In this document: piece after piece, positions 4,456 to 26,778 of the stretch
Layout: each line of letters opens with the position of its first letter
How positions within the stretch are numbered: position 1 is the stretch's first letter
Source: an uncultured Ignavibacteriales bacterium
GTDB lineage: Bacteria > Zixibacteria > MSB-5A5 > GN15 > FEB-12
NCBI GenBank assembly: GCA_964540105.1
Contig: CAZILL010000001.1
Coordinates: forward strand, 315,649 to 379,648
Length of the DNA stretch: 64,000 nucleotides
Direction of reading: 5' to 3'
Made by a program: the position numbers and the translations under genes
Notes under the pieces: model-generated
Told to the model about the DNA's origin: nothing
Seen by the model: the letters and a program-made list of their open reading frames with translations, nothing else
Database searches by the model: none

Positions 4456-4456
4456 C

Positions 4457-5578: not shown

Positions 5579-6475
5579 ATGAGGATTCTTCTAAGCGGCG
5601 CATCCGGTCTCATCGGCTCCAACCTCGCTCCGTTTCTCGTCGAGCGTGGTCATGATGTCGTGCGACTTGTGCGCGGATCGTCGGGCAGGAGTGACAACGC
5701 GATTTTCTGGGATCCCGTCCTACACTCACTCACACTCCCCCCCGGCGATCACTTCGACGCCGTCATCAATCTAGCGGGTGAGAATCTTGGCGCGAAACGC
5801 TGGAGTCCGGAGCGTAAGAAAGAGCTCGTGGACAGCCGCATGGTCACGACGGCACTGCTCGCGGAAACGATCGCTGGACTGGAGAATCCTCCCGAGGTCT
5901 TCATCAATACTTCGGCGATCGGTTTCTACGGCGATCGAGGAGACGCCATGCTTACCGAAGATAACCACGCCGGAACCGGCTTTCTTGCCGATGTCTGTAC
6001 CGAATGGGAAGAGGCGACCACGCCAGCGCAACGCGTCGGCATTCGTACGGTGAAAGCTCGACTGGGGATGGTTCTTGCGCGTGATGGAGGCGCTCTGCCC
6101 AAGATGGCGCGCCCATTTCGATTCGGCCTCGGTGGCAAGCTCGGCAGCGGGCGGCAATACATGAGCTGGATCGCCATGCCCGACCTTCTGGAGGCTGTTT
6201 TGCACTGTCTCTACAAGACAGAACTCTCCGGTCCGGTCAACTTCGTATCGCCGAATCCGGTTACCAATGCCGAATTCACCCGCGAGTTGGCGCGCTGCCT
6301 CAGGCGCCCCGCCCTGTTCAGTGTCCCAAGCTGGTCGCTTGCGGCGCTGGTTGGGCCAGAGATGGCCGCTGAACTTCTTCTGTCAAGCACAAGGGTTGAA
6401 CCCGCAAAGCTGACCGCGTCGGGCTTTGATTTCTCTTGTCCGACTCTCGACGTGGCGCTCAAAGCCGTCTTGTAA
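5579..6475 (+). CDS. YfcH/TIGR01777-like NAD-binding epimerase-family (atypical SDR) protein
   Basis: N-terminal Rossmann motif ILLSGASGLIGSNL. The C-terminal region resembles the DUF1731 extension of YfcH-type proteins. Confidence 0.7.
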   Translation: MRILLSGASGLIGSNLAPFLVERGHDVVRLVRGSSGRSDNAIFWDPVLHSLTLPPGDHFDAVINLAGENLGAKRWSPERKKELVDSRMVTTALLAETIAGLENPPEVFINTSAIGFYGDRGDAMLTEDNHAGTGFLADVCTEWEEATTPAQRVGIRTVKARLGMVLARDGGALPKMARPFRFGLGGKLGSGRQYMSWIAMPDLLEAVLHCLYKTELSGPVNFVSPNPVTNAEFTRELARCLRRPALFSVPSWSLAALVGPEMAAELLLSSTRVEPAKLTASGFDFSCPTLDVALKAVL

Positions 6476-6588
6476 TCGAGAGAGGTGCGACTTGGTGCAC
6501 CGCGACGGCGATATCAATTCCGTTGCCTCGTGCGTTCAAATCCCTATATTCCCGAGGAAATTTGCGTCGTCGAGAAGAGAAAGAGATC

Positions 6589-8240: not shown

Positions 8241-8310
8241 TCTTTTCAAACAACGCCCGTTGAAAATCATCTCGTAACGCCCACATGTTGGGTCACACTT
8301 GGGAGGGTGT

Positions 8311-10236: not shown

Positions 10237-12112
10237 ATGGCGCCTGTGCCCGTTCCTGTGCAGCCTCCTCCTGGCCTCTTGGTTCTCGCAGGCTGGCAAT
10301 GCTGCTACAGCCGCAGTCGACGTCGCTCGCTTCGATTCGCTGTCACATCGCTGCTACGTAGAGGACAACGAGGCGGTGCTGCATGTCTTCAATCGAGTCA
10401 CGGTTCTCTCAGCGGCCGGAGAGGAATACGGCCGAGTCTGGGTTAGCGAGTCAAAATTCTCCAAACTGAAGTCAGTGGAGGTGCGTCTGATCGACGCCAC
10501 CGGCAGGGTGATGCTCAAGCGGAAGAAGGGAGACCTGACCAAACAGTGTGGTTTCGGCGATCACGGCGTGCTCTATTCGGACTATTGCTGGTACACTGCC
10601 GACCTCAGTGCTCCGGCCTATCCGTACAGCGTGGAGTGCGAGTATGAACAGGAATTGCGGTCTCTGTTCTTTGTGAACGGGGTCTCGCTTCAGCGCGGGA
10701 TTCCGATCCGTACGGCAGTAGTCGAGCTCAGCTTTTCATCTGATTACCCGATCGCCTATAAAGAATACGGATTCGATCGTGCACCGGTTGAACTGACGGA
10801 AAAGAAGCGTCGGACCCTGACCTGGACCCTGACCGACATTCCAGCCGGGGAGTCTTATTCGTACATACCGCCCGAGCATGTTGGCGGGATGCGACTGGAA
10901 CTCGTGGCTGAACGGTTTGATCTGGATGGACATACGTTCCACCAGAGATCGTGGAAGAATGTGGGGTTATGGGCAAAGGAGCTCTTTGACTCTCGCTATA
11001 ATGTAGGGTCGAAGCCGACAACCTCGCCCTCCCCGGACGAGGCGTTGAAGGCCGCGAAGCGAATCTACATGGACCTGATCCGTGCCGTCAGGTATGTGGC
11101 TGTGCAGATTGGAATCAGCGGCTGGCAGCCAAGCCTTGCGTCCGAAACTGAGGCAAAGAAGTACGGCGACTGCAAGGGGATGGCCGTCCTGCTGGTTTCA
11201 CAACTTCGTTCGGCGGGGATTGAAGCGTATCCGTGCCTCATTCTCACCAAAGGCGAAGGCGCCCTTGATACCAGCTTTGTCAATCTCGGATTCAACCATG
11301 TGATCGCCATGGCGCTGATTGGTCGGGACACACTCTGGATGGATCCCACCTGTGACGTTTGTCCTCCGGGAGATCTGCCCTCGAGTGACGAAGATAACAC
11401 TGTACTGATCATTACCGACCGCGGTGGAGTGCTGGTGAGAACTCCACGGCCAGTACCAAACGACAATCAGATCGTTAGAACTACTGCTTTGGAGGTCGAT
11501 GACACCGGCTTTGTCTCGATTGTCTCCAAGGTGTCGGTGACGGGCAACTATGCTCATAATATTCGGGCGAGCCTGCGGGAGTTGGCCAACGATGAAGCCG
11601 ACGAGTATATGCATACCTGGCTTCTCGGAGACAATCGCATGTTCAACCTCTCCCACTATACGACATCCAATCTCACCGATATCACCGTGCCACTTATCGT
11701 TGAAGCGCGGCTGAACAGTGTTCGACCGACAGACAGAATCGGACAGACTCACTATGTGCGTCCGATTCTGTTTTCGAGTCGAGACATATACGGCGACGCC
11801 AAGACGTCGGGACGATCGATACCGATTTCCCTGGGCTCCCCGCGATCAATAATTGACTCGGTCTTCATCCACGGCACGTCCCGGTTTCACATTGATTCGA
11901 TAGTTACACCAGTGAACGACTCAGCGATATGCCAGGGGGCCAGCGCGTCGATCAGTTTCACGCGCGACAGTACGGGCGCGACAGCCTGCTATGTCCAGGA
12001 GTTTCGCGGAGGTTCGGTGCCCACGGACCGCTTCGATGAGTTCACTCAATTCCTGGCTTTGCGTCGGAAGATTCTGGATACACCGGTGAAACTCCGGTCG
12101 GTTGCACGCTGA
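10211..12112 (+). CDS. Secreted DUF3857 + transglutaminase-like cysteine peptidase-fold protein
   Basis: It has a signal peptide. The transglutaminase-core triad context is present: YGDCKGMAVLL (Cys), FNHVIAMAL (His) and LWMDPT (Asp). The gene overlaps the preceding gene by 26 nt. Confidence 0.7.
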   Translation: MKPFLPASRWRLCPFLCSLLLASWFSQAGNAATAAVDVARFDSLSHRCYVEDNEAVLHVFNRVTVLSAAGEEYGRVWVSESKFSKLKSVEVRLIDATGRVMLKRKKGDLTKQCGFGDHGVLYSDYCWYTADLSAPAYPYSVECEYEQELRSLFFVNGVSLQRGIPIRTAVVELSFSSDYPIAYKEYGFDRAPVELTEKKRRTLTWTLTDIPAGESYSYIPPEHVGGMRLELVAERFDLDGHTFHQRSWKNVGLWAKELFDSRYNVGSKPTTSPSPDEALKAAKRIYMDLIRAVRYVAVQIGISGWQPSLASETEAKKYGDCKGMAVLLVSQLRSAGIEAYPCLILTKGEGALDTSFVNLGFNHVIAMALIGRDTLWMDPTCDVCPPGDLPSSDEDNTVLIITDRGGVLVRTPRPVPNDNQIVRTTALEVDDTGFVSIVSKVSVTGNYAHNIRASLRELANDEADEYMHTWLLGDNRMFNLSHYTTSNLTDITVPLIVEARLNSVRPTDRIGQTHYVRPILFSSRDIYGDAKTSGRSIPISLGSPRSIIDSVFIHGTSRFHIDSIVTPVNDSAICQGASASISFTRDSTGATACYVQEFRGGSVPTDRFDEFTQFLALRRKILDTPVKLRSVAR

Positions 12113-13877: not shown

Positions 13878-16028
13878 ATGAATCTCTATGCACTCACCCA
13901 TCGCTTCGTGATGGCTCTTCTTTTGAACAGCGCTGATATCAGCGCAGGTCAGACCGATACCGCCAGCTACCAGCTTGAGCCGATTGTCGTGACCGGCACG
14001 CGCATGCCGATTGACTGGCTTGACGCCCCGGTTGCGCTGACAGTGATCCCGCAGTCAGTTCTCAAACAGAGTCGAGGGTATGGAGTCGACGAACTGTTGT
14101 CGACCGTGCCGGGCGTGCTCGCGCAGTCTCGTTCGGGCAGCCACGATGTTCGTCTGACCGTTCGCGGGTTCGGCGCTCGCGGCGCAGGGGAACGCTCCAA
14201 TGCCGGAACGTCGCGTGGAATACGTGTGCTACTAGATGGTTTCCCCGAGACGGAGCCCGATGGCCGTACGGCTTTCGACCTGGTCGATCTCTCCTACGCA
14301 GGATCAGTCGAAGTGGTCCGTTCCAACGTTTCGTCGATCTGGGGAAACGCCGCCGGGGGGGTTATCAATGTTCTTTCGAACACAAGTTTCACGACCCCCT
14401 TCGCAGCAACGCAGGTAACGTTTGGCAGCTTTGGGTACCGTAAGGATCTCCTCACCGCCGGAGCCATGATCGGATCGGGGCGGCTCTTTCTCACGTTGAG
14501 CAACACGAACTTCGACGGCTGGCGCACGCATTCGCGAAGCGCTCGGTCACTATTAAACGCCGGTGTCGTTTCTCCCATAGGAGCGAGAACAACCCTGGGG
14601 CTCTATCTGACCGCCGCGAGTAATCTCTTTCGCATTCCGGGACCACTAACCCAAGCGCAATTCGACGCCGATCCACAACGGGCGCAGGATTCGGCATTCA
14701 ACGGAAAACCGAGCTACATTCAGCGCGACGAGCGACGCTTTGACCGCCTGGGGCGACTCGGATTCAAGCTGGCCCATGACTTTGACAGCGGCAATTCCCT
14801 CTCAGCGTCGGTTTTTGTTGGACCCAAGTATCTGCAGCGCTCTGAACGCAATTCGTTCCGCGACTTCACCCGCTATCATGTCGGCGGGAGCGCCCTCTAT
14901 CGCCACAGTTCGACGCTGGGGTCTCGCATGAAGAACACTTTGATGCTCGGCATGGATGAAGCCTATCAAGACGGGGCGATCCTCTTCCACAATCTCGTCG
15001 ATGGCCAGCGCGGAACAACCACACGAGACAACAAACGCGAGGGGGCGAACAACCTGGGGCTATTCATCGAAAACCAACTCACTATAGATAATCGTTCGAC
15101 GGTCTTGTTTGGCGGTCGCTATGACGATATCGTCTACTATTACGACGACTACCTGCGGCCGCAGCGGAACGACCGAAAGTCGTTCCGGAGATTCACGCCG
15201 AAAGTGGGAATGTCGTATCGGCTCAACGAGAAACAGAGCATCTATCTCAGTATCGGTGGAGGCGTCGAGGCGCCGGCCGGCAATGAAACCGATCCCGCTC
15301 CGACGAATGGTTTAGATACAGCCACCACCCTGAACCCGCTGCTGAAACCGATTCGTTCGACAACCTTTGAACTGGGCATCAAGCATATTGTGAACCCCGA
15401 CGGGGAACGATTCCTGCGACGTCTGACGTATGATATTGCGCTCTATTGGATCGAAGTTCGCGATGATATCGTTCCCTATGAGAGCGGGGGATTCTACTTT
15501 ACCGCAGGAAAGACCCGGCGACAGGGGCTCGAAGCCTCGATGGTAGCCGACCTGAGCAGCGGCGTATCAGTTCAAGGCGCCGTAACCTTTTCGCGAAATC
15601 GATATGTCCAATACCTGATTGACTCAGCATATTCCGGTTTTCATGCTGACTACCGTGACAACAAGATCGCCGGCACGCCCGACTTCTTCTTCAGGACATC
15701 GCTCAGATATGCGCCGCGCTGGGTCTCCGGTGTTTCGGGCGAGATCAGCGCCCAGGGTGTGAGCGGCTACTTCGCCGACGACGCCAACAGTGTCGCGGTG
15801 CCAGCCTACATAATAGCAAATGCGGCGTTCATGTTTCAGAATCTCTACGTGTATCAGCGTCACCTTGCGCTAAACGGTTCAATAGCTTTGAACAACCTGA
15901 CTAACCGGCAATACGCCGCTTCAGCCTTTGTGAATCCTGATCGAAACATCAGAAACGAGCCGATCTTCCTTGAGCCCGGGTTGCCTCGCAACTGGACTGT
16001 TTTGCTGTCACTTCGTTGGGATTTTTGA
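13878..16028 (+). CDS. TonB-dependent receptor
   Basis: Plug-domain start YQLEPIVVTGTR, a long beta-barrel body, and a C-terminal aromatic residue (LLSLRWDF). Confidence 0.85.
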   Translation: MNLYALTHRFVMALLLNSADISAGQTDTASYQLEPIVVTGTRMPIDWLDAPVALTVIPQSVLKQSRGYGVDELLSTVPGVLAQSRSGSHDVRLTVRGFGARGAGERSNAGTSRGIRVLLDGFPETEPDGRTAFDLVDLSYAGSVEVVRSNVSSIWGNAAGGVINVLSNTSFTTPFAATQVTFGSFGYRKDLLTAGAMIGSGRLFLTLSNTNFDGWRTHSRSARSLLNAGVVSPIGARTTLGLYLTAASNLFRIPGPLTQAQFDADPQRAQDSAFNGKPSYIQRDERRFDRLGRLGFKLAHDFDSGNSLSASVFVGPKYLQRSERNSFRDFTRYHVGGSALYRHSSTLGSRMKNTLMLGMDEAYQDGAILFHNLVDGQRGTTTRDNKREGANNLGLFIENQLTIDNRSTVLFGGRYDDIVYYYDDYLRPQRNDRKSFRRFTPKVGMSYRLNEKQSIYLSIGGGVEAPAGNETDPAPTNGLDTATTLNPLLKPIRSTTFELGIKHIVNPDGERFLRRLTYDIALYWIEVRDDIVPYESGGFYFTAGKTRRQGLEASMVADLSSGVSVQGAVTFSRNRYVQYLIDSAYSGFHADYRDNKIAGTPDFFFRTSLRYAPRWVSGVSGEISAQGVSGYFADDANSVAVPAYIIANAAFMFQNLYVYQRHLALNGSIALNNLTNRQYAASAFVNPDRNIRNEPIFLEPGLPRNWTVLLSLRWDF

Positions 16029-16194: not shown

Positions 16195-16794
16195 TTGGGT
16201 AAACGAATTCTCATGGCAGCTGCGGCCCTTCTGCTGGCTGTTCCGGTTATCAGTTCTGCAAAGGATATGAAGGGGAGGTTCGGTTGTGGATTCAACAGTA
16301 GCCAGGCTCCAATCGGGGCGCGGTATTGGTTTTCAAATACTCTCGGCGCCGACCTCGGCATAGGTTTCGAGGCTGTCCGTTTCCCGAAGGGGAAGAACAC
16401 AGCCGAAAAGGCTGCTGAAAAAGAGGGGGCCAACAGTTTCTGGATAGAGGCCGGCATCCCTTTTGTGGTCTACCCGACCGAAAAGGCAAACCTGATGATT
16501 CATCTCAGCGGACTGCTTGGGTTCGAGGATGACAATCGGTACGAGTACCATCTGCCGCATCTCGGCGATACGATTACGTATACGATTACGGGACACACTT
16601 CTACTCGTTTCAGCATCAGACTCACGCCGACCGTGGAACTCTGGTTGACCGACAACTTTTCCCTTCAAGCCGGTCATGGTGTAGAGTTTCAGATCGTCAA
16701 CCCCTATAAGGAAACGAAGGTCGACGCGAGCTATCGTTTTGGTACTTTCGCCGCACCGATTACCGAATTCGGATTCCATTTCTACTTTAAGTAA
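16195..16794 (+). CDS. Small outer-membrane beta-barrel protein
   Basis: TTG start about 9 nt after AAGGAGG. Signal peptide MGKRILMAAAALLLAVPVISSA, alternating hydrophobic strands, and a C-terminal FGFHFYFK. Confidence 0.6.
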   Translation: MGKRILMAAAALLLAVPVISSAKDMKGRFGCGFNSSQAPIGARYWFSNTLGADLGIGFEAVRFPKGKNTAEKAAEKEGANSFWIEAGIPFVVYPTEKANLMIHLSGLLGFEDDNRYEYHLPHLGDTITYTITGHTSTRFSIRLTPTVELWLTDNFSLQAGHGVEFQIVNPYKETKVDASYRFGTFAAPITEFGFHFYFK

Positions 16795-16912: not shown

Positions 16913-17545
16913 ATGTCCAGGGAACGTACCTTTCCATTCGAATTCGAATCACGCAAGCCAGTCTATTTCTATCCCGCGCAACCGGAGCTGATTTCCGGTG
17001 ACGTTCTGGAGATCGGTCCGGGGCGGGGAGATCTGCTGCTCTCCGAGTCAGCCCAGCGCCCAGAACTCCGCTTCGTCGGGGTTGAGCTGAATGGCTTCCG
17101 TTTCCGCAAGCTCTCACGCCGCGCTGCAAAGCGAAATCTCGCAAATGTCCTGCTCATCAAGGGGAACGCCCGCATTGTCATCCCCCGCTTCTTCTCCGGT
17201 CCCACATTTGAGAAAATTTACGTGCTCTTCCCCGATCCCTGGCCCAAAGAGCGGCACGCCTTCAACCGCCTGTTGTCGATTGGATTCCTTCAGATCCTGA
17301 CCGATATCCTGCGCCCGAAGGGGGTGATAGTCGTCGCTACTGATGACGCACCATATGCCGAATGGGTCGCGGCCAACGGCGCGGCGATCAGGTCGCTGTC
17401 GTCAGGCGGTATTCAGGAAGTCGACGCGGGTTCAATCCTCCCGAGTGGCGAACAGACTTTCTTCGAAGAGCTTTGGCGCGAGAAGGGAAAACGGATCTAC
17501 CAGCTGCGCTTTGAGAAAATGCTATCGGGAGTCTCGTCGGGCTAA
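16913..17545 (+). CDS. trmB: tRNA (guanine-N7)-methyltransferase
   Basis: SAM-binding motif LEIGPGRGD and the diagnostic LFPDPWPKERHAFNRL motif. Confidence 0.8.
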   Translation: MSRERTFPFEFESRKPVYFYPAQPELISGDVLEIGPGRGDLLLSESAQRPELRFVGVELNGFRFRKLSRRAAKRNLANVLLIKGNARIVIPRFFSGPTFEKIYVLFPDPWPKERHAFNRLLSIGFLQILTDILRPKGVIVVATDDAPYAEWVAANGAAIRSLSSGGIQEVDAGSILPSGEQTFFEELWREKGKRIYQLRFEKMLSGVSSG

Positions 17546-17554
17546 CTTCGCCGA

Positions 17555-19132
17555 CTACCATTCATGGCACTGCTTGCAAGCCGTTTTGTCGATGTTGAGC
17601 TTGCCATGTTCTGCGACTGTGTGGCATGTGCTGCAGGCCAATTCGAGTTCCTTAATGTGCATTTGATGCGGCAATTTCTTGTTGTCGTACGGTACAGTTT
17701 CCGCGACGGGCTTAAGCTTGTGACAAAACGTGAGGCAACTGTTCTCGGGCTTCAATCCGGCTCCGCGGCCGGGCGCCTGAAATGAGCTGCTGAGGGCGGA
17801 CATCGCCCGCTCCATCCGGTCGGCGCCGGAATTCAACAGGTACAGGGCGTAGCGAATGTTGTGTGAGATGTGCCCTTCTTTCACAAATCCCAGATTGAAC
17901 TCGGCGCTGCTGATCGCCTCCTGAGCGCTGGTTCGCGCCCTTTGATTGCCACCGATTTTATCGAACGATGATTTAATCCCCGTGAGATATGCGTCGTAGT
18001 CGGCCAACACTCGCTTGCTTCCGTCGAGCCAGTTGTCGAACATCAGTTCGAAGCCCTCACCATGGCAGGTCACACATGATGCCCTTTGCGCCTCCTTTCG
18101 CTGCTGTAAAGCGAGCGGTTCCCCTTGCGGTGTGGAGTGCGTGTGGCAACCGGTGCAGGAGACCTGGGCGGCGAACATCGGACTTGGCATATCGAGCGTA
18201 TCGCGCCCACCAATGCCCATGTACATCTGCTTGGGTCGATTGTGCTGACGAAGGTGGCAGTTCTCGCACTGAATCTCCAGCGCGCTCACCATCTCAAAAT
18301 TGCCATGCTCTATGTCGGAGTGGCACTTGAAGCAATCGATCCCATTCGTCGTGACGTGGATAGAATGCAGCTGTTCGCGCGTGTATTCCTGTCGGGAGCG
18401 TTCGACATGGCACGAATAGCACTTTGCCTCAGGCACTGAGCCGTCCCCTTTGACAATGCGCGTGTGGCACTGTTTACACTCCACCTTAAGCTTCAGGTAC
18501 GGGGCGTGATCAAAGCTGAACCCGGCATGCTCGACGGTTGCCGTCGGCATCCCATGACAGGCGTCGCATCCGGTAATCGCCTCGCCCTGACCGGCATCCT
18601 TGAAGTGACAGACAAAGCAGCTCTTGTCGTTGACTGCCATATGTTCCTTCGAGATATCTTCATTGAACTGAACGATCTGATTATGGCACGAGGTGCAGCG
18701 GAGCTTCTCTCCGCGCAGAGGTTTTTCGAGATGTTTGGTGTGGTCGAAGGCGATTCCCTTGCGGTATTGAGTCGTCCCCTGGAGCAGGCGCAGTTGATGG
18801 CAGTCAGACGCCAGACAGCTCTCGTCGTGGACGTTTGCCTTTGGCCGACTATTGAAGGTTCCCGACCAGTACTTCAGGGTCGAGAGTGTAAGCCGCGCAA
18901 CGCCGTAATCATGGCACGCCACACAGGTCACTGACGCGTGGCCGGAGGTTTTCCAGTGGCGCACGTATGGTTCCATGTAGTGGCATGACTCGCAGAAACT
19001 CGCCTGATAAGTTTTGTACTTGAGCGCCGCTCCAACCAGAGCGAGCAGAACCACGAGAACCCCTGTCGCCATGATCAGTGTTCGGGCGTGACGCAGGAAG
19101 GTGGCGGAAAGGTCGCGAAAGAATGAGATCAT
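17555..19132 (-). CDS. N-terminally anchored multihaem c-type cytochrome with a NapC/NirT/NrfH-like head
   Basis: N-terminal TM helix (ATGVLVVLLALVGAAL). The head is FCESCHYMEP...CVACH. There are 13 CXXCH sites plus CLASDCH (CX4CH) and CLTFCH (CX3CH). The start overlaps the upstream cytochrome b stop (ATGA). Confidence 0.85.
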   Translation of the reverse strand: MISFFRDLSATFLRHARTLIMATGVLVVLLALVGAALKYKTYQASFCESCHYMEPYVRHWKTSGHASVTCVACHDYGVARLTLSTLKYWSGTFNSRPKANVHDESCLASDCHQLRLLQGTTQYRKGIAFDHTKHLEKPLRGEKLRCTSCHNQIVQFNEDISKEHMAVNDKSCFVCHFKDAGQGEAITGCDACHGMPTATVEHAGFSFDHAPYLKLKVECKQCHTRIVKGDGSVPEAKCYSCHVERSRQEYTREQLHSIHVTTNGIDCFKCHSDIEHGNFEMVSALEIQCENCHLRQHNRPKQMYMGIGGRDTLDMPSPMFAAQVSCTGCHTHSTPQGEPLALQQRKEAQRASCVTCHGEGFELMFDNWLDGSKRVLADYDAYLTGIKSSFDKIGGNQRARTSAQEAISSAEFNLGFVKEGHISHNIRYALYLLNSGADRMERAMSALSSSFQAPGRGAGLKPENSCLTFCHKLKPVAETVPYDNKKLPHQMHIKELELACSTCHTVAEHGKLNIDKTACKQCHEW

Positions 19133-20079
19133 GATCCTGCCTTTCGCTCAGATTCATTGTCGGTTTGTTCGCGAACGAGAGTCTCGCGTTCGGCGTTAAT
19201 GATCTCGGCATACTCAAGCGGGTGATGGTGTTTCATTTCGCTTTCGGTGAGCGTGCCGCGCCACCAGACCCAACTCATCGGGAAGACTTCGGGATTGAAG
19301 TGAACATTGTAGAAGTGCCAGACAATGATGGCCAGCGTGGCCAGAAGCCCTTCGTCGGAGTGGGCTTCCCGAGCGATATCAAAGATATCTTTCGCAAAGT
19401 TCTCCTTGAACCACAGGATCAGCCCCGACCCGATCATGACTACCATGCCCCAGTAGACCGCCCAGTAGTCGAATTTTTCGATGAACGAAAAGCGCCCAAA
19501 TTTCGGTCCCGAGGTTTTTCGACCGAGATAGTACATGATGGTCTGGAACGCGTCAACGGCGTCGCGTGGTCGCGGGATCATCAGGAAGAAATCGCGCCGC
19601 CCCATCCGGGAGGCAACGATATAGACCAGATGCCACCCTCCGACGATGATCAGTCCCGTGGCGGCGATGCGATGCACGAGCGTGGAGCTTTGCAGTCCTC
19701 CGAAAATATTGATGATGATAAACTTGGAGATGCCAAACGACGGGAACTTGAGCGGAATGCCGGTGATGATCAGGAAGATAACCGACACGAACATGAGCAT
19801 GTGTTGCGCTCGGAAGTTTTTGCCGAAGCGAAGAAATGTCCGCTCGGTGGCGTCGACAATCACCCGGGCCTTTCGAACGCCGAAGCGGGTGACTACTTCA
19901 CTGAACGCGACGTTGGCCTCGAATCGAAGTCGCTCGTTGATTTCAGCGGAGGCTTTGTTGAGCTCATCCGTACTGATTTTGGGATCAATAAGCGGGCGGG
20001 CCGAGTCGATGATGCTCTGAGTTAAGTCATCGACCAGCTGATCACGTTTATGCTGTCGTTCGCGCGTGTTGTCGTCCAT
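19129..20079 (-). CDS. Four-TM b-type cytochrome, FdnI/HydC/PhsC-like
   Basis: The entry motif is RFGKNFRAQH, followed by 4 hydrophobic helices. His residues lie in TM1 (QHML), TM2 (VHRIA...GGWH) and TM4 (VWHFYNVH). There is an N-terminal hydrophilic extension of about 85 aa. Confidence 0.7.
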   Translation of the reverse strand: MDDNTRERQHKRDQLVDDLTQSIIDSARPLIDPKISTDELNKASAEINERLRFEANVAFSEVVTRFGVRKARVIVDATERTFLRFGKNFRAQHMLMFVSVIFLIITGIPLKFPSFGISKFIIINIFGGLQSSTLVHRIAATGLIIVGGWHLVYIVASRMGRRDFFLMIPRPRDAVDAFQTIMYYLGRKTSGPKFGRFSFIEKFDYWAVYWGMVVMIGSGLILWFKENFAKDIFDIAREAHSDEGLLATLAIIVWHFYNVHFNPEVFPMSWVWWRGTLTESEMKHHHPLEYAEIINAERETLVREQTDNESERKAGS

Positions 20080-20082
20080 AGC

Positions 20083-21135
20083 TTACTGTTTGGCGCGAGC
20101 CGCCTTGGCTCTCCGGAAGAGGTCCAGAAGGATGAACAGAAACAATCCGATTAGAGTCGAAATGGTCAGAATGGCAAAGAACTTGGTTATATAGTACAGT
20201 AATCCGGAGTCTTCGCTCTCGGGATCGACGTGGATTTTCCCTGACGCGAACTGGGGCGTAGCTTCGGGATGGCACCCCGCTTTCCCACAGGTTGTGACAA
20301 TATTTCCGGCGTTGATCGACGACTTTGGATCTTCGGCGCGTCGAATGTCGTGAACACCGTGACACGACGCGCAGTTTGCGACAGTCGTGTTTTGCATCAC
20401 CCGGGCGATTCCGTGGAACGAATGCTCATAGGTCGCCGAGCGATCGGTCTTGATGCCGTACTTGGCAACCACACCGACCGGACCGTGACATTTTGTGCAT
20501 GTACCGGCAATATTGGTGGCGGCGACCTGTGATGATGGGTCGTCGGGACGTCGGATATTGTGCTCGCCATGACAGGAGGAGCAATCCGGGGCATCCAGAA
20601 TTCCCTTGGCAAGCGCTGCTCCGTGAACCGACTCGCGATACGTAGCGTAGATTTCTATGTGGCATCGCCCGCACGTCTTCGGGCGGTTCATTTTGAAGAT
20701 CGTTGATTTGGAAGAGTCAGGAGGCAGAACGTCGTGGGTACCGTGACAATCCTGACAGACCGGGGCTTTGGCGTTCCCTTTGATCACTTCCATGCCGTGA
20801 ACCGAATGTTCGTATTGGTCGTAGAGTTCACCTTGAGGGGCGCCAACGGGATTCCCGGAGTAGTGACAACGTTTACAGTTGACCTTCTGTACCTCCTTGT
20901 GCGGAATCGCGACGACATCGATGTGACAGTCGGTGCACGGCCGCGCAGCGTGGGTGGAACCCTTCAGGACGGATTCGTCGACAAACAGACTTACCTTGCG
21001 ACCGGTCAATTCAGTTTTCGAGAAATCGCTTTTCCCATGGCACAACAGGCACTTCTCGACCGCTCTGCCGTCGATCGCGCATGACAATAGCGCGATGAGC
21101 CCAACAGAATACAGGCGCACTCTGAATCGCTGCAT
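20083..21135 (-). CDS. C-terminally anchored multihaem c-type cytochrome (8 CXXCH + 1 CX4CH)
   Basis: It has a signal peptide. Haem sites are CLLCH, CTDCH, CKRCH, CQDCH, CGRCH, CSSCH, CTKCH and CASCH, plus CGKAGCH. A recurring S.HG...C..CHG.H unit is present. The C-terminal TM helix is followed by a basic tail. Confidence 0.85.
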   Translation of the reverse strand: MQRFRVRLYSVGLIALLSCAIDGRAVEKCLLCHGKSDFSKTELTGRKVSLFVDESVLKGSTHAARPCTDCHIDVVAIPHKEVQKVNCKRCHYSGNPVGAPQGELYDQYEHSVHGMEVIKGNAKAPVCQDCHGTHDVLPPDSSKSTIFKMNRPKTCGRCHIEIYATYRESVHGAALAKGILDAPDCSSCHGEHNIRRPDDPSSQVAATNIAGTCTKCHGPVGVVAKYGIKTDRSATYEHSFHGIARVMQNTTVANCASCHGVHDIRRAEDPKSSINAGNIVTTCGKAGCHPEATPQFASGKIHVDPESEDSGLLYYITKFFAILTISTLIGLFLFILLDLFRRAKAARAKQ

Positions 21136-21140
21136 GCCGC

Positions 21141-22337
21141 CTATGCCACCCTCTTGATGCGTCGCCGGTATTCGAGCACACGGTATGTGATGAAGCCGAG
21201 GATCAGGATCGAGATGAACCAGATATAGAACTTACGAACGTAGAACTGCCCGCCGGAACTCGGCTCGGTGGCCGAACTGTGCACGGTTCCCTTGGCGAAA
21301 TCGGCCGGAAGGTCCTGATGACACTGGCCGCAGGTCGTCTCCACATTTGCAGTGTTGATCATCGAGCGAGGATCGGTCTGTGGGTATATATTGTGAACGC
21401 CGTGGCAGGATGCGCAATTCGCAACCCGCTTGTCCCCGAGTTCTCCGGCCGCTCCGTGAAATGACTCCTTGAATGTTCCGATCCGATCGGATTTGAGACC
21501 GTACTTGGCAACAATCTTCTCCGAGGCATGACAGTCCGAACAGGTCCTCGACACACTGGTTGTAAAGACACGCGATGTTGGATCCAGATGCGCCTTGATG
21601 TCATGCTCACCATGGCAATTGGTGCAGGTCGGAGAATCAAGAACTCCTTTGTCCAGCGCCACTCCGTGCACCGATTCGGAATAGAGTTTGGCAATATCAC
21701 CATGACACTTAGCACAGGTGGATGCGATGTGAGTCTTGTAGATAGGACTCCCCGGCTGGTCGGCCGGGAGAAAAGAATGGCTGCCATGACAGTCGACACA
21801 GGCCGGCGCGCCTGCTTTTCCGTCGACCATGAGAGCCCGGCCATGAATCGAGTTCTCATACGCTTTGATCACGGTCGGTTTGGGCAGATTTGCGACCTGC
21901 TCGGTAAGGTTCTGGTCTTCATGACAGGCGACGCAAATCTTCACTGAATTCTTGTGATTCGTATGTGCGTTAGGATTCGCGATCGCCAGCACATCGTGCC
22001 CGCCGTGACAGGTCACGCACGTTGGGATTCTCTCAATGTTTGCCTTCCGGCCGGCCACGTGTGGCGACTGGTTGTATCCCTCTGCTTCTGCAGCATGGCA
22101 CTGACCGCAGAAGACGACTTTCGTTCCTTTGTGATTTTTCGCCGGATCTACCGTGTGGCATTCAGTACAAGGCAAGGAAGCATGAATCGAACCCTTCAGC
22201 ACAGACGTATCGACGACGACAGCTTTCGATAGTCCCTTGGGTCGCCCCTGTCCGTGACAGGTAAGGCATCGGTCATCCGGCGCTGGGGCAGCGGTCGCCA
22301 GCAAGAGCACAATTGCCGCGACATAAAAAGGATTCAT
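21141..22337 (-). CDS. C-terminally anchored undecahaem c-type cytochrome
   Basis: I chose the ATG at 22337, which is preceded by AAGGAA and gives the signal peptide MNPFYVAAIVLLLATAAPA. There are 11 CXXCH motifs. A C-terminal TM helix (FYIWFISILILGFITYRVL) is followed by a basic tail. Confidence 0.85.
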   Translation of the reverse strand: MNPFYVAAIVLLLATAAPAPDDRCLTCHGQGRPKGLSKAVVVDTSVLKGSIHASLPCTECHTVDPAKNHKGTKVVFCGQCHAAEAEGYNQSPHVAGRKANIERIPTCVTCHGGHDVLAIANPNAHTNHKNSVKICVACHEDQNLTEQVANLPKPTVIKAYENSIHGRALMVDGKAGAPACVDCHGSHSFLPADQPGSPIYKTHIASTCAKCHGDIAKLYSESVHGVALDKGVLDSPTCTNCHGEHDIKAHLDPTSRVFTTSVSRTCSDCHASEKIVAKYGLKSDRIGTFKESFHGAAGELGDKRVANCASCHGVHNIYPQTDPRSMINTANVETTCGQCHQDLPADFAKGTVHSSATEPSSGGQFYVRKFYIWFISILILGFITYRVLEYRRRIKRVA

Positions 22338-22375
22338 AACACCATTCCTTGTTAGTTTTTTCACAAACTCCCCTA

Positions 22376-22403
22376 AATATATCGATATAGATTTGTAACG
22401 CAA
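22376..22403 (-). promoter_or_regulatory. Sigma70-like promoter candidate for the cytochrome operon (TTGCGT-N16-TATATT)
   Basis: Read on the minus strand, TTGCGT lies at 22403-22398 and TATATT at 22381-22376, about 40 nt upstream of the 22337 start. It overlaps a 10-bp palindrome, ATATCGATAT. Confidence 0.3.
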
Positions 22404-22465
22404 CAGGATTCTCTGGAGTCGCCTGTCTTTATTGCTGATTTCCTGCGCCGTGAGGGCGGGTGAAC

Positions 22466-23155
22466 CTACTTGTTGCCGTTACCGTTTAGGTCAATCTGGC
22501 CATCTTTGAGGCGAACGATGCGAGTGGTCTGCTTGGCGATATTGGCGTCGTGCGTGATAATGATGATCGTCTTACCCGAATTCCAGAGCTCGTAGAATAA
22601 CTTGACAATCTCTCCACCCGACTTGCTGTCCAGATTGCCGGTTGGCTCATCGGCCAGAATGATGTCCGGTTCGTTGGCCAGGGCGCGCGCAATGGCTACC
22701 CGTTGCATCTCACCGCCCGACATTTCCGTGGGCTTGTTGTTGACCTTGTCGCTCAGCCCGACCCGCATGAGCAGCTCCATAATCCGATCGCGACGTTTAC
22801 GAGCGTTGGTGCGGGCGAAGAGCAGTGGCAGCTCGACGTTCTCATAGGCTGTGGCATAGGGAAGCAGGTTGAACGCCTGAAACACAAACCCGATCCGCTG
22901 ATTTCGGATGTCGGCAAGCTGGTTTGGACTCAGCGTGTTGACCAGACTCCCGTCGAGACGGTATTCTCCCTCGGATGGGATATCGAGGCAGCCGATGATA
23001 TTCATCAGTGTTGATTTCCCCGAACCTGACGGACCGACGACGGCGATCAGTTCACCACGTTTGACCTCGAAGTCGACCCCTTTGAGAGCCTGGAAGGGAA
23101 CTTTGCCCGTCAGGTAGTTCTTCTCGACTCGCTTCATATCGATGATAGTGTTCAT
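22466..23155 (-). CDS. ABC transporter ATP-binding protein, MacB/LolD-type
   Basis: Walker [10 protein letters not shown], signature MSGGEMQR and Walker [14 protein letters not shown] preferred the ATG at 23155 over the GTG at 23167 because of its spacing to GAGGTGG. Confidence 0.9.
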
Positions 23156-23175
23156 TCCGCTTTCCACCTCGCCTG

Positions 23176-24423
23176 CTATTCGTACCTGAGCGAATCGACC
23201 GGATTCACCTTTGAGGCCTTGAGCGCCGGGAACAGCCCCGACAAGACGCCCATAACACCCAGGATCAACACCACGACCAACCCGATCTGGAAGGAGATGG
23301 TAGGCCGACCGAGCCAGTCAAAGATCTCCGATTTGATCGGCACGCGCTTGAAAGCCTCCGTTCCGAGGTAGCTGATGAACATCCCTCCGAATCCCCCGAT
23401 CACCGTGATGATCATCGCTTCCACTAGAAACTGCGCTGTGATGTATGAACGGCGCGCTCCAAGAGCCATCTTAATACCGATCTCCCGGGTGCGCTCTTTG
23501 ATCGACACGTACATGATATTCGCGACACCAACACCGGCGATGAGCAGGGTCAGACCGCCGATGATCCCAAGGAACATCTGCAGGCCGATCATAATCTTTC
23601 CCAGCACGGCGTTCTCTTCGTTAAGATCCCAGACATTGATGGCGCGCTCGTCAGACGGGTCGAACTTGTACTTTGCCGCCAGAACTTCACGGACGCGCTG
23701 CTCCGCGCTCTTGATGTTGGTTTCGGGGAACGGCTTATACATCACCAGTTGCAGGTATCTGTACCCAAAGAGGGTGGAGAAAGTGGTAGCCGGAATCGAT
23801 CCCTTGTTGGCGTCGGGACCGCTGTACATGTTGTTCTGAATCTTGTGAATCATCACCCCAATTACTGTGAAGGGGGTGTTGTTGATAAGGATCTGCTTAC
23901 CAAGCGCGTCTTCGTCGCCGAAAAGAGAGGTCTTCAGTTCGTCCCCAAGAAAGATGACGCGCCGTTTGAGCTGCATGTCGAGATTGTTGATCATGCGCCC
24001 TCCCGATTGCGGATAATGAGTGCGCATTTCCTCGTAGTTGGGATAGATACCGGTCAGATGACCACTCATCACTTTCTCTTTGTAGCGATAAGTGATTCCC
24101 CAATCGGCATATTCACCCCCGACCAGTTTGAGCTCCGGCATTCGCGACTTGAGCAGTTCGACATCCTCAGCCGTGAAGCGAATCCGCCTCCCTTTGTTGA
24201 GCCCTTTGTACGGCTTCGTCGTTTGGCCGGGCCACAGCATGATGATCCCTTCGCCAAGACCTCTCGAATTGATGGTCATCTGGCGTTTCAGCCCTTCACC
24301 GAACGCAAGCAGGAGCATGATCGAGACCGTTCCCCAACCAAGCGCCAGCAACGTGAGCGTGATCCTCTTCTTCTGCTTCCGAAAGTCCCGCAGGAACACG
24401 TTCACGATAATGGTCAACCGCAT
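23176..24423 (-). CDS. ABC transporter permease, FtsX/MacB-type
   Basis: It has an N-terminal TM helix, a large periplasmic domain and a C-terminal FtsX-like 3-TM bundle. Confidence 0.85.
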   Translation of the reverse strand: MRLTIIVNVFLRDFRKQKKRITLTLLALGWGTVSIMLLLAFGEGLKRQMTINSRGLGEGIIMLWPGQTTKPYKGLNKGRRIRFTAEDVELLKSRMPELKLVGGEYADWGITYRYKEKVMSGHLTGIYPNYEEMRTHYPQSGGRMINNLDMQLKRRVIFLGDELKTSLFGDEDALGKQILINNTPFTVIGVMIHKIQNNMYSGPDANKGSIPATTFSTLFGYRYLQLVMYKPFPETNIKSAEQRVREVLAAKYKFDPSDERAINVWDLNEENAVLGKIMIGLQMFLGIIGGLTLLIAGVGVANIMYVSIKERTREIGIKMALGARRSYITAQFLVEAMIITVIGGFGGMFISYLGTEAFKRVPIKSEIFDWLGRPTISFQIGLVVVLILGVMGVLSGLFPALKASKVNPVDSLRYE

Positions 24424-24429
24424 AGCACC

Positions 24430-25665
24430 TCAGAAGAGTTTGATTGCCTGCACAGGCTGCAGGTTGGCGGCTCGCCGCGCCGGGAAGTAGCCGGCGATGA
24501 GCCCAACCACTCCGAGCAGCAAGGTTGTGAAGATGCCGTTGGTAATATCGACGCGGGGCACGCCAATGTACTCTTCGAACTTGAGCAATGGGAACACCGA
24601 GGCGATGAGGTAGGCAAACAGAAACCCGAATATGCCGCCGGTGAAAGTGATCAACAGGGTCTCGAATAGAAACTGGCCGAGGATCATCCCCTTGCGAGCT
24701 CCGAGAGCAATCTTGATTCCGATCTCCTTGGTCCGCTCCTCGATAACGACATGCATGATGTTGGAGACGCCGATTCCACCCGTGATGAGCGTGGCCCCTC
24801 CGATCCCAACGAGGAAGATTTGAAAGGCCATGAAAAAGGTCTTGAGGAATTTGATCCCCTCGGTCGTGTCCCAAATCTGAAGCGCTTCCTTGTCGTCTGG
24901 GTCGTACTTGTATTTCGCGCCCATGATCCGGTGAAGCTCTGCTTTCGCCGTCAGCATAGGCTGGTCAGGTTTGGTTTGCAGGATGAGATTGTCTAAGTAG
25001 ACGCGGGAGTACATCCCGTGAAAGGTCGTCGACGGAATCCAGGCGCGGCGTTCGTCGCGCTGACTGTACGAACTCTGCTGGACTTTGGGTTGCATGACGC
25101 CGATCACCGTGAACGGCACACCGTTGACGAGAAGATTCTCGCCCACCGGGTCAGTCGAACCAAACAGGTCGTTCGCGATCTTATCGCCAAGAAAAACGAC
25201 TCGGCGCTTCGCTTCCATGTCGAGCTCGTTTAGGAATCGTGAACCGGGGCCGGGTATGATGTTGCGCATCTCCGCATATTCCGGCCAGACACCGGCGACA
25301 TTCTGAAGAAAAGTCTTCTTCCCGTTCTGAAGGTTCACGCCCCACTTCATGTATTCCGGAGAAAGCCTGTAGATAGAGTTTGCACGTGTCTTCAGAAGGG
25401 TGGCATCCTCCTCGGTGAAACGGATGTTCCGACCTTTGGGGAGCCCCTGAAAAGTTTTCGACGTGACCCCCGGCCAGATGATCGCGATATCTTCGCCCAA
25501 ACCTCGTTGTCCCTTGATCTGCTGCTCACCGAGCCCTTTACCAAACGCGAAGAGAAGTACAATCGAGCAGGTTCCCCAAAAGATTCCGAACATGGTAAGC
25601 AGCGTGCGCAGCTTCTGACGCCGCATATCGTTCAGGAATTGTCTGACTGAAAGGAGGGGGACCAT
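24430..25665 (-). CDS. ABC transporter permease, FtsX/MacB-type (paralogue)
   Basis: It has the same topology as the 23176-24423 product and is clearly similar to it. Confidence 0.85.
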   Translation of the reverse strand: MVPLLSVRQFLNDMRRQKLRTLLTMFGIFWGTCSIVLLFAFGKGLGEQQIKGQRGLGEDIAIIWPGVTSKTFQGLPKGRNIRFTEEDATLLKTRANSIYRLSPEYMKWGVNLQNGKKTFLQNVAGVWPEYAEMRNIIPGPGSRFLNELDMEAKRRVVFLGDKIANDLFGSTDPVGENLLVNGVPFTVIGVMQPKVQQSSYSQRDERRAWIPSTTFHGMYSRVYLDNLILQTKPDQPMLTAKAELHRIMGAKYKYDPDDKEALQIWDTTEGIKFLKTFFMAFQIFLVGIGGATLITGGIGVSNIMHVVIEERTKEIGIKIALGARKGMILGQFLFETLLITFTGGIFGFLFAYLIASVFPLLKFEEYIGVPRVDITNGIFTTLLLGVVGLIAGYFPARRAANLQPVQAIKLF

Positions 25666-25680
25666 CGGGTGATTCCTTGC

Positions 25681-26778
25681 CTACTCGCCCTTGATCTCTT
25701 TGGGCGGACGTTCCACGAGTAGTTCCCCTTCCTTGAGCCCCTCCTTCACTTCGATGTTCACACCGTCGGAGAGACCGGTCACGACCACGCGTGGCGTGAC
25801 AACGCCCATACTGTCCTTAATCTCGACCGTGCTCGACGAATCGGTCATCTTCACCAGCCGCTCTGGAGCAATGAGAATGTCTTCCTTCTTATTGATCACG
25901 ACGTTGCCGTTCGCGCTGTAGCCGGCACGCAGATTCCCCTGCGAAATAGACGTGATCGACATCTCCACGTCGAACAAAGTGGAGCCCTCTTCCTTATGCG
26001 CCTTCGGAGATATCCTGGAGAGCTGAGCCGACACCTTGGTAGTCGGGAGAGCGCCGATCTCAATCTCGGCCGACATCCCTTCGCGGAGCTTGCCAACATC
26101 GATCTCGTCAACGGTCCCCTTGAACATGAGATCATCCATCGCCGCCAGAGTCATGAGTTCAGTTCCGGCCTGATACGAGGTCAGCGGCACGACCGGATCG
26201 CCGACTTGCACAAGCCGCGAGAGAACGGTTCCGGTGATCGTCGATTTGATCACATTGTCGACCTGGCGATTTGCGATTTGCGTGCGTCCGGTCTCGGTCA
26301 AGGCGAGCTTCTCGCGCGACAGCTTCAACCTCAGCTCCGCCTCGTCATATGCCGCTTGACGGGTGTCAAATTCCTGATTGGAGATAAGCCCTTTCTGGCT
26401 CAGGGTGGTGGCCCGATCGAATTCGCGCTTCAGATTGTCGAACGTGACCTGCGCCAATTCCACCTGGCGCTTGGCGTCGGCATATTCAATCGGAGTCGGG
26501 TCGGGCGCGATGTCGAACAAGGGATCACCGATCGTGACTTTGTCGCCGACATCAGCGTAGATCTTCTTGACCAGACCGCCTACTTTCGACTTCACGGAAA
26601 TCTCGTGACGCGGCTGGATTCGTCCGACCGCCAGCGCCTTGTCGATAATTGTTCCCTTCTTCACCGGAACGGTCTTGAGGATATCTTCCTTCTTAGCCGA
26701 ACCGTCCCCGACAAAGAAGAAGACAATGGCTCCGACCGCGATCAGAGGAATTGTGATATAGAGGACTTTCTTGAGCAT
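25681..26778 (-). CDS. Efflux periplasmic adaptor (MacA/HlyD family)
   Basis: It has an N-terminal TM helix, lipoyl-like halves, a coiled-coil hairpin and a beta-barrel. It is the first gene of the MacAB-like operon. Confidence 0.85.
   Translation of the reverse strand: MLKKVLYITIPLIAVGAIVFFFVGDGSAKKEDILKTVPVKKGTIIDKALAVGRIQPRHEISVKSKVGGLVKKIYADVGDKVTIGDPLFDIAPDPTPIEYADAKRQVELAQVTFDNLKREFDRATTLSQKGLISNQEFDTRQAAYDEAELRLKLSREKLALTETGRTQIANRQVDNVIKSTITGTVLSRLVQVGDPVVPLTSYQAGTELMTLAAMDDLMFKGTVDEIDVGKLREGMSAEIEIGALPTTKVSAQLSRISPKAHKEEGSTLFDVEMSITSISQGNLRAGYSANGNVVINKKEDILIAPERLVKMTDSSSTVEIKDSMGVVTPRVVVTGLSDGVNIEVKEGLKEGELLVERPPKEIKGE

Follow-up and report, generated by a model that had tools for sequence, protein, structure and literature searches.

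Four cytochrome genes without a catalytic subunit in an uncultured member of the Zixibacteria: a candidate module for electron transfer from the quinone pool to the periplasm

What kind of respiratory system can be formed by genes that encode only cytochromes, and no enzyme, is the question raised by a four-gene operon (g1 to g4) in a stretch of 64,000 nucleotides (nt) from the genome of an uncultured sediment bacterium of the Zixibacteria (GenBank assembly GCA_964540105.1, contig CAZILL010000001.1, positions 315,649 to 379,648), which is referred to below as the window. The nearest named relatives of the window, among the matches listed, are metagenome-assembled genomes (MAGs) of Candidatus Zixiibacteriota, with 60–74% identity. 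A contig of the Logan assembly SRR13723393 also matches the window and is called the source contig below. The operon specifies three multihaem c-type cytochromes and one cytochrome b, and we know of no characterised complex with this subunit composition. The reading that we favour, to which we assign a probability of about 0.55, is that it lets electrons leave the quinone pool by two exits that are coupled differently and lead into a single network of periplasmic haems, the most likely purpose being extracellular electron transfer.

All four genes are encoded on the minus strand (Table 1). A first-pass annotation of this DNA had described them as packed almost without spacers, and this is confirmed by the coordinates of the open reading frames (ORFs): g1 and g2 are 5 nt apart, g2 and g3 are 3 nt apart, and g3 and g4 share a 4-nt ATGA overlap. 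The total of about 35 c-haem sites that it had given was likewise recovered by motif counting as 35, with 11 CXXCH motifs in g1, eight CXXCH and one CX4CH (CGKAGCH) in g2, and 13 CXXCH together with one CX4CH (CLASDCH, C106-H112) and one CX3CH (CLTFCH, C466-H471) in g4, which gives 11, 9 and 15 motifs for the three proteins. For g1, an ATG at 22337 is a likelier start than the TTG of the maximal ORF; it has AAGGA 8 nt upstream and an AT-rich leader, it yields a protein of 398 amino acids (aa), and the gene call on the source contig has the same start and length. The statement that no catalytic subunit is encoded in or beside the operon was also upheld. A motif scan revealed no CXXCK in any of the four proteins, no gene for a molybdenum, iron-sulphur (FeS), HAO or porin protein adjoins the operon within the window, and neither an NrfD-type membrane subunit nor an FeS subunit is present in the operon or its flanks. 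The operon is not an Nrf, Otr, Hao, ACIII, Qrc or Hmc system, as the defining subunits or motifs of each of these are absent.

The hydropathy profiles of g1 and g2 indicate for each an N-terminal signal and a C-terminal transmembrane (TM) helix with a periplasmic domain between them, in agreement with the Sec signals and tail anchors proposed earlier. The two proteins are paralogues, as had also been noted (37% identity, E 6e-74), and a two-haem insert is missing from g2. Pfam matches to Cytochrome_C7, c3_2 and Paired_CXXCH were obtained for g1, while a single-sequence search of the PDB with this protein gave nothing useful. The haem motifs are all invariant, both among 47 sequences of the g1 type and among 60 of the g2 type. 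Outside the motifs, exactly 11 His of g1 reach a conservation of at least 90%, as do exactly nine of g2, the latter nine being 100% conserved. As the number of conserved non-motif His equals the number of haems in both proteins, bis-His ligation of every haem is possible, and the pattern appears to be the signature of electron-transfer haems that are all bis-His ligated. The C-terminal hydrophobic helix is present in all of these 47 and 60 sequences, and in g1 and g2 of the window it contains no His. The last haem of g2, with H302 as its predicted distal ligand, is located about 20 residues before the C-terminal anchor. An LLSC sequence near the N-terminus of g2 had suggested a lipoprotein, which was ruled out as the Cys is not conserved among the homologues.

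The cytochrome b, g3, contains no haem-c motif and no Cys. Its hydropathy profile shows three clear TM segments, and the fourth is backed by a full-length alignment with FdnI. The protein matches Pfam PF01292 with a score of 44.2 bits (cut-off 30.1; E 2.4e-11). A single-sequence PDB search with g3 gave nothing useful and a profile search was needed, in which a profile of 17 family members aligned with FdnI (1kqf_C) over residues 3-215 of 217 (E 3.3e-19), so that the earlier description of g3 as a four-TM FdnI-like cytochrome b is borne out. In the profile alignment, H93, H136, H240 and H255, which are invariant in the 17 sequences, are positioned at the His residues of the four FdnI blocks, which we take to be the ligands His18, His57, His155 and His169. 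Thus g3 is predicted to be a dihaem cytochrome b of the FdnI type in which none of the four canonical His ligands is missing, and like FdnI of E. coli formate dehydrogenase-N it would have four TM helices with His at all four ligand blocks. It differs from FdnI in having a fifth invariant His (H150, in the cytoplasmic half of TM2 and with no FdnI counterpart) and a charged cytoplasmic N-terminal extension of 85 residues, and the direction of electron flow may be reversed. Within the b family, such an extension is carried only by the 'long' b that stands beside g4; this long b belongs with the short b and with the b domain of a fused protein described below to one family, in which the same five His are invariant. 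For H150, the extension of g3 and the N-terminus of g4, a cytoplasmic contact between g3 and g4, or a role as ligand of a third haem or of a quinone, is possible.

By analogy with formate dehydrogenase-N, g2 is likely to pair with the cytochrome b in the way that FdnH pairs with FdnI. Like FdnH, g2 (or g1) would be a periplasmic electron-transfer subunit held by a C-terminal TM anchor; unlike FdnH, it carries c-haems instead of four 4Fe-4S clusters and is not accompanied by a catalytic alpha subunit. A closer likeness is provided by the Cbc-type modules of Geobacter, which the first-pass annotation had regarded as the nearest concept, a view that our comparisons uphold. CbcL consists of a nine-haem c domain followed by a HydC/FdnI-like b, and has been called unique in joining a cytochrome b to a multihaem c without other cofactors (PMC6295460; bioRxiv 10.1101/2022.08.31.506072). 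As in CbcL (Cbc1, GSU0274), MtrH and MtoC, the g2-g3 pair has a periplasmic multihaem c placed N-terminal to a HydC/FdnI-like b with two haems, and the c-haems number nine in CbcL and g2 alike. FeS, flavin and molybdenum partners are lacking, the location is the inner membrane and the setting is that of extracellular electron transfer. When the g2 anchor is counted as helix 1, the paired His are found on helix 5, as in the published description of CbcL, and beside the operon in Zixibacteria relatives an 11-haem c and a b are truly fused. Unlike CbcL, the c and b proteins of the window are separate polypeptides (with a stop codon and a 3-nt gap between them) that have 1 + 4 TM helices instead of 6; g3 has the fifth His and the 85-aa extension, and the pair is locked to the gene for an NrfH-headed 15-haem cytochrome. 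The g2-g3 pair is not a strict member of the CbcL family, as it is unfused. Its likeness to CbcL is one of architecture and description. CbcB and CbcL are themselves reported not to be homologous to each other, and with CbcBA (Cbc5) the g2-g3 pair shares a separate 4-TM cytochrome b and a multihaem c on a C-terminal TM helix. However, CbcB has three His and receives the fourth ligand from the C-terminal anchor of CbcA (bioRxiv 10.1101/2021.04.15.440034), whereas g3 has all four and the anchors of g1 and g2 have none; CbcA, moreover, has seven haems.

The remaining protein, g4, has by hydropathy a single N-terminal TM helix (12-42), which agrees with the N-terminal anchor proposed earlier. Its residues 21-74 match the NrfH model TIGR03153 at 9e-9 (35.5 bits, against a cut-off of 134), and the N-terminus matches NrfH in the PDB (2j7a_C) at 9.3e-7 with the single sequence and at 4.4e-10 with a profile (21-76). 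The match comprises the CXXCHXM motif at haem 1, an SxHA motif and the distance to haem 2, features that, together with the one N-terminal TM helix, g4 has in common with NrfH, NapC, CymA and ImcH. A quinol site on the positive (P) side of the membrane is a property of the NrfH/NapC family. Unlike NrfH and CymA (4 haems) and ImcH (7 haems), g4 has 15 haems and no enzyme partner, and its first two haems are the only ones that align well with NrfH, haems 3-4 aligning weakly. In NrfH the haem of the quinol site has the Met of CXXCHXM as its proximal ligand (bioRxiv 10.1101/2023.05.03.539133); in 113 homologues of g4 this residue (M53) is at least 90% conserved and all 15 haem motifs are invariant. 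Many of the orthologues carry the NapC/NirT domain PF03264. The cytoplasmic N-terminus of g4 follows a majority consensus among the 113 homologues, MxxFxxDxxxxxxxHxxxL, which is not invariant. The weak match to haems 3-4 of NrfH is located at residues 491-519, where the last two motifs (C500 and C519) are 19 residues apart, and the tetrahaem core of NrfH may have been split by an insertion of about 420 residues that carries 11 haems.

While the earlier assignment of a NapC/NrfH-type head to g4 stands, the remainder of the protein is not a series of generic haems. In a profile search, residues 217-441 matched residues 267-502 of OcwA (6i5b) with E 4.7e-16 and NrfA weakly (~2e-3), and three haems follow in the C-terminal part of g4. 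The structure 6I5B is that of OcwA, a protein of the NrfA family with a three-helix bundle (PMC6703420), and the region homologous to OcwA of Thermincola potens includes this C-terminal bundle. An AlphaFold2 model of g4 built with 113 sequences (predicted local distance difference test score, pLDDT, 80.2) contains, besides the TM helix, a helix at the N-terminus and, at 361-447, a three-helix bundle predicted with confidence; with 17 sequences pLDDT was 55 and the model was unusable. In a Foldseek search of the PDB with the former model, the best matches were NrfA and MccA, weak and partial (~160 columns, E 0.08-0.5), which corroborates the NrfA-family likeness but is not decisive. The resemblance to NrfA and OcwA is confined to the region of the helical bundle. 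Unlike OcwA, which is a cell-surface protein, g4 would be anchored in the inner membrane, and by comparison with OcwA and the NrfA/MccA family it has no predicted penta-coordinate haem and no CXXCK, and extra haems flank the homologous region. None of the NCBIfam models for Nrf, Otr, Hao, Tor, Hmc and DmsE reaches its cut-off, and those for Nrf, Tor, Hmc and DmsE fall far below it. Among the 113 homologues 14 non-motif His are conserved (11 that are invariant plus H164, H202 and H209), which is enough for every haem of g4 except the NrfH-type haem 1. With 11, 9 and 14 conserved His for 11, 9 and 15 haems, the proteins of this operon look like wires and not like enzymes, as the first-pass annotation had suggested.

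At least 581 species-representative genomes contain a relative of g4, and gene order was analysed in the best 80 of the loci concerned, all of which are from MAGs. They span the Zixibacteria, Calditrichota, Ignavibacteria, Methylomirabilis and Gemmatimonadota, and also the Deferrimicrobiaceae, other 'Deltaproteobacteria', Acidobacteriota, Latescibacterota, Aminicenantia, Aquificota and Poribacteria. When 1.84 billion representatives were searched exhaustively with HMMER, 282 protein clusters (50% identity) were obtained at E <=1e-30. Searches with g4, g3 and a g4 from the Holophagae revealed neither a cultured host nor a named Geobacter homologue, the organism-named matches listed being all from MAGs. 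The ORFs in all loci were re-called from stop to stop and assigned by phmmer envelopes, as longest-ORF calling fails at high G+C content.

Of the loci, 66 extend far enough upstream to be evaluated, and in 60 of these g4 is directly preceded by a nine-haem c and a long b; wherever a b directly precedes g4 it is the long form (68 of 69 loci, the exception, L017, being a truncated hit). The 4-nt overlap of g3 and g4 is present in 21 of 42 loci, and the junction is either overlapping or no longer than 2 nt in 41 of them. When the genes are written as c with the haem number, or as b, the order found in the window (c11-c9-b-c15) is shared by 16 loci, all of them Zixibacteria/FCB-type; 16 loci have the order c11-b(short)-c9-b(long)-c18, with a second c11 gene in front in those from the Deferrimicrobiaceae, and about 15 have b-c9-b-c18. 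The copy number of g1 is 0, 1 or 2, and in the Acidobacteriota this gene is on the opposite strand. A survey of the four-gene order, as had been proposed, recovers it in Zixibacteria/FCB-type loci, but most phyla carry the five-gene form c11-b-c9-b-c18, which is spread over more than ten of them. The recurrence of the five-gene form indicates that the window operon is a reduced version in which the first b has been lost in the Zixibacteria lineage, and the conservation of the motifs together with a gene order that recurs across phyla shows that the operon pattern is not due to chance.

These results also modify the view that the arrangement has no match. It remains true that no characterised complex is alike, but the arrangement is not singular, being a trimmed five-gene cluster of which a matching composition has been published. 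For Ca. Deferrimicrobium borealis SHF-111 a 'cluster 1' of four multihaem c-type cytochromes (9-16 motifs) and two 4-TM cytochromes b has been described as a putative quinol-oxidising complex for iron reduction (PMC9386147), and this composition (the comparison being of composition, not of the SHF-111 sequence) matches the order c11-c11-b-c9-b-c18 of the Deferrimicrobiaceae loci. Compared with 'cluster 1', the window has a single b and a single c11, and its g4 is shorter, with 15 haems in place of 18. The authors of that study placed the largest cytochrome at the outer membrane (PMC9386147); the NrfH-type anchor predicted at its N-terminus argues instead for an inner-membrane location. The combination of a b-type and a NapC-type module in one operon, which the first-pass annotation could not match to a characterised complex, has a precedent at the level of a gene cluster: in Rhodoferax ferrireducens two copies of cymA are found in one cluster with mtrH and mtrABC (PMC6295460).

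No catalytic neighbour is conserved across the related loci examined, in which the recurrent large neighbours were scanned, and the possibility raised with the initial annotation, that a catalytic subunit might be encoded immediately adjacent in related genomes, is therefore not realised. The large neighbours considered as candidates for such a role are a GGDEF regulator, DnaE, peptidases, sugar kinases and similar proteins, none of which is conserved across lineages. Other neighbours differ between phyla. An Aminicenantia locus has a porin-like outer-membrane protein (Porin_4) and cytochromes with 8-10 haems as neighbours. Three Ignavibacteria MAG loci (L067, L068 and L079) contain a 19-haem c, two short b, a c9, a long b and a 20-haem g4, and in addition a second, 18-haem g4 paralogue, an MtrC-like 15-haem protein, Fer4_11 and NrfD; a second type of quinone module, NrfCD-like, would thus be attached, and the pair of NrfD and Fer4_11 is an extra that was seen only in the Ignavibacteria loci. 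In phyla other than the Zixibacteria, Aminicenantia and Ignavibacteria, the cluster is flanked by unrelated housekeeping genes.

The flanking genes of the Zixibacteria relatives bear most directly on function. In the chromosome CP070777 (L015, 734-11585) and in about ten other Zixibacteria-type loci (L007, L013, L016, L021-L024 and L058 among them), the four-gene core is part of an island that also contains a decahaem cytochrome of the GSU2203/OmcK family, which belongs to the DmsE/MtrA family (329 and 232 bits), a protein of the GSU2204 family that has one CXXCH (561 bits), a gene of ~130 aa without known function, and an ImcH-like gene. Downstream of the core, the island carries a 657-aa fusion of an 11-haem c domain with an FdnI-like b (L015 9612-11585). 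Judged from its sequence, this protein has the CbcL architecture and would constitute a Rosetta-stone link for the pairing of c and b. The GSU2204 family has been annotated as an outer-membrane barrel of the MtrB/PioB type (PMC13188914), and in G. sulfurreducens the iron oxides haematite and magnetite induce both GSU2203 and GSU2204 (PMC4070692). A role in extracellular electron transfer, which the first-pass annotation had put forward as a hypothesis, is made plausible by analogy with these flanking genes, as the same four genes stand beside OmcK/MtrA, MtrB/PioB, ImcH-like and CbcL-like genes. The window also has an ImcH-like gene, encoding a protein with three N-terminal TM helices and seven haem motifs (Pfam NNT, NapC/NirT, 1.7e-6); in CP070777 the gene directly upstream of g1 is its homologue, with 68% identity. 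As the homologue adjoins g1 there, the window genome has separated this gene from the operon, by 9.4 kb.

Based upon these observations, the operon would encode an inner-membrane module that passes electrons out of the menaquinone pool into the periplasm by means of haems only and with no catalytic subunit. In this proposal g2 would dock on g3 through its tail anchor, as FdnH does on FdnI, its last haem probably facing the periplasmic b-haem of g3, and the g2-g3 pair would be the split counterpart of the fused CbcL, MtrH and MtoC proteins. Menaquinol would be oxidised by g4 at an NrfH-type site that faces the periplasm. Two routes are thus envisaged. The route through g4 would be electroneutral, with protons released to the periplasm, following the logic of ImcH and CymA; electroneutral operation with release of protons on the P side has been described for ImcH (bioRxiv 10.1101/2023.05.03.539133). 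In the route through g2-g3, electrons would cross the membrane by way of the b-haems, following the logic of CbcL, so that less energy would be kept and lower-potential acceptors could be reached. CbcL, which joins a cytochrome b to a multihaem c without other cofactors, lowers the H+/e- ratio, and when it operates the cell yield is down by ~50% (bioRxiv 10.1101/2022.08.31.506072). Both routes would feed a shared periplasmic haem network, leading in the relatives to an outer-membrane conduit of the OmcK/MtrA and MtrB type, and g1 would serve as an additional anchored wire, its own b partner having been lost in the lineage of the Zixibacteria.

A number of observations weigh against this interpretation. 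The match of g4 itself to Pfam NapC/NirT (PF03264), at 23.6 bits, is just under the cut-off of 24.1. Members of the family also occur in Methylomirabilis, in Gemmatimonadota and in further groups for which metal respiration is not known. An outer-membrane conduit of the Mtr/Pcc type (a barrel adjacent to a periplasmic decahaem) is not present at the window operon, which has an ABC exporter and TrmB as neighbours. What connects g4 and g1 with the g2-g3 pair is synteny and translational coupling, and the kinship to CbcL, ImcH and CbcBA of Geobacter is one of architecture, not of alignment. The direction of electron flow cannot be read from the sequence; FdnI itself is a protein that reduces quinone, and relatives of CbcL and MtoC occur in iron oxidisers too (PMC6295460). 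Lastly, in the best 80 loci and in the organism-named matches, the members of the cluster are known only as genes in MAGs.

Among the alternatives, the one that survives best overlaps with the proposal above. It supposes that the operon encodes co-expressed but independent modules: a split CbcL-like quinol oxidase, a stand-alone g4 acting as a CymA/ImcH-like quinol oxidase with a long haem tail, and g1 as a membrane-tethered periplasmic shuttle, which share a promoter because they serve the same pathway and not because they assemble. ImcH, CbcL and CbcBA are separate proteins in Geobacter (bioRxiv 10.1101/2021.04.15.440034), cymA and mtrH of the Rhodoferax cluster are likewise separate genes (PMC6295460), no g3-g4 fusion was found among the 240 g3 and g4 matches listed, and g1 varies in copy number and in strand, as noted above. 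However, the start-stop overlap of g3 and g4 is conserved across phyla, the b that stands directly upstream of g4 is almost invariably the long one with its cytoplasmic extension, and a shared N-terminal consensus such as that of g4 would not be expected for a free anchor. We regard full independence of the modules as a tentative alternative, with rather less in its favour than the proposal of two exits.

A second alternative reverses the flow through g3 and treats the operon as a self-contained redox loop or electron-uptake module. Here g3, fed by g1 and g2 with electrons from a periplasmic or extracellular source (for instance Fe(II), humics in the reduced state, a partner in syntrophy or c3-type carriers of the periplasm), would reduce menaquinone at the cytoplasmic face, and the NrfH-type head of g4 would re-oxidise menaquinol on the periplasmic face and pass the electrons to a higher-potential acceptor, so that 2 H+ per 2 e- would be translocated without a pump. 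FdnI, the closest solved relative of g3, functions in formate dehydrogenase-N as a quinone reductase at the negative (N) side. A loop of this kind would explain why two different quinone modules are kept together (in the 60 of 66 loci noted above) and are translationally coupled, and it suits lineages for which metal reduction is not known, Methylomirabilis and Gemmatimonadota among them. The sites of NrfH are on the P side (bioRxiv 10.1101/2023.05.03.539133), and homologues of CbcL, MtoC and MtrH are found in Fe(II) oxidisers as well as in reducers (PMC6295460). Against this, no donor-side enzyme (hydrogenase, formate dehydrogenase or Cyc2) is conserved nearby, and the ImcH-like, CbcL-like and OmcK/MtrB-like genes that flank the core in Zixibacteria correspond to genes that in Geobacter serve outward transfer; homologues of ImcH, further, have been found only in Fe(III) reducers (PMC6295460). 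The absence of any feature that fixes the direction of flow counts here as well, and we consider the loop to be an unlikely account of the operon.

Somewhat more doubtful still is the assembly of all four proteins into one supercomplex, in which 35 c-haems would connect an FdnI-type quinone site on the N side with an NrfH-type quinol site on the P side. Such a supercomplex could work as a redox loop that is complete in itself and proton-motive, with donors and acceptors in the periplasm or outside the cell, or as a built-in redox 'gearbox' that could choose, by acceptor potential, whether electrons leave the quinone pool by an energy-conserving exit or by one driven by the membrane potential. 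The equivalent switch of exits is made in Geobacter with three separate proteins. The least probable alternative, that g4 is a catalytic reductase of the NrfA/OcwA family (for nitrite, hydroxylamine, sulfite or another small oxyanion) fused to an NrfH-type quinol dehydrogenase, can draw on the match of residues 217-441 to OcwA and NrfA, on the Foldseek results and on OcwA's capacity for reducing nitrite and hydroxylamine without a CXXCK haem (PMC6703420), but it is very hard to reconcile with the lack of CXXCK, with 14 conserved non-motif His for the 14 haems other than haem 1, which leave no open-coordination site predicted, with the failure of the NCBIfam NrfA and Otr models to match, and with Foldseek matches that are partial and have E values above 0.05.

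With regard to its surroundings in the window (Table 1), the operon is flanked by a MacB-type ABC exporter, TrmB, a small ORF resembling an outer-membrane protein and a TonB receptor. The exporter (ABC export system 2) terminates 62-128 nt upstream of g1 on the same strand, and read-through transcription from it into the cytochrome operon is therefore possible. A scan of positions 17300-22800 for promoters and terminators gave matches that were not above shuffle expectation and none at the ends of the operon, the consensus patterns being probably unsuited to this lineage. Just downstream of g4, on the opposite strand, are the 199-aa protein and the adjoining TonB-dependent receptor, which are outer-membrane proteins, not of the porin-cytochrome type. 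The tandem DUF3857 paralogues are followed by a 502-aa multi-TM protein without a family match. The domain assignments for the neighbouring 2928-aa secreted protein are from precomputed Pfam matches on the source contig, and its Por_Secre_tail domain agrees with the earlier statement that this lineage bears a type IX secretion system (T9SS).

Table 1. Positions of the operon genes and of other features within the 64,000-nt window
Feature	Window positions	Strand	Size	Details
g1, 11-haem c-type cytochrome	21141-22403	minus	420 aa	maximal ORF, from TTG
g2, 9-haem c-type cytochrome	20083-21135	minus	350 aa	
g3, FdnI/HydC-type dihaem cytochrome b (predicted)	19129-20079	minus	316 aa	
g4, 15-haem c-type cytochrome	17555-19132	minus	525 aa	
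ImcH-like 7-haem NapC/NirT-type cytochrome	6589-8106	plus		maximal ORF 6436-8106; start near 6589 inferred from alignment
ABC export system 1	713-5569	plus		HlyD-like, two ATPases, two ABC-2 permeases
Tandem paralogues	8299-10236 and 10211-12112	plus	~640 aa each	DUF3857 + transglutaminase-like core
TonB-dependent receptor	13878-16028	plus		
Signal-peptide protein	16195-16794	plus	199 aa	beta-barrel-like C-terminus, no family match
ABC export system 2	22466-26778	minus		HlyD-like, two MacB/FtsX permeases, ATPase
Secreted protein	29269-38055	minus	2928 aa	PKD/Big-type repeats, Por_Secre_tail (T9SS) domain
Memo-like domain fused to AMMECR1 domain	58406-59845	plus		one ORF

The inner-membrane quinol:cytochrome c modules of a metal-respiring cell set the energy that it keeps and the acceptor potentials that it can reach. 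To our knowledge, only ImcH, CbcL and CbcBA of Geobacter and CymA of Shewanella have been studied experimentally among such modules, and the cluster described here is a conserved alternative to them that is widespread in uncultured phyla. It points to a modular path of evolution, in which c-b pairs are both split and fused and an NrfH head has been grafted onto an NrfA/OcwA-like body, and the strict pairing of an FdnI-type with an NrfH-type protein poses a testable question of energy coupling. In genomes of sediment and subsurface lineages, the cluster could also be used as a marker of quinone-linked electron transfer, whether periplasmic or extracellular.

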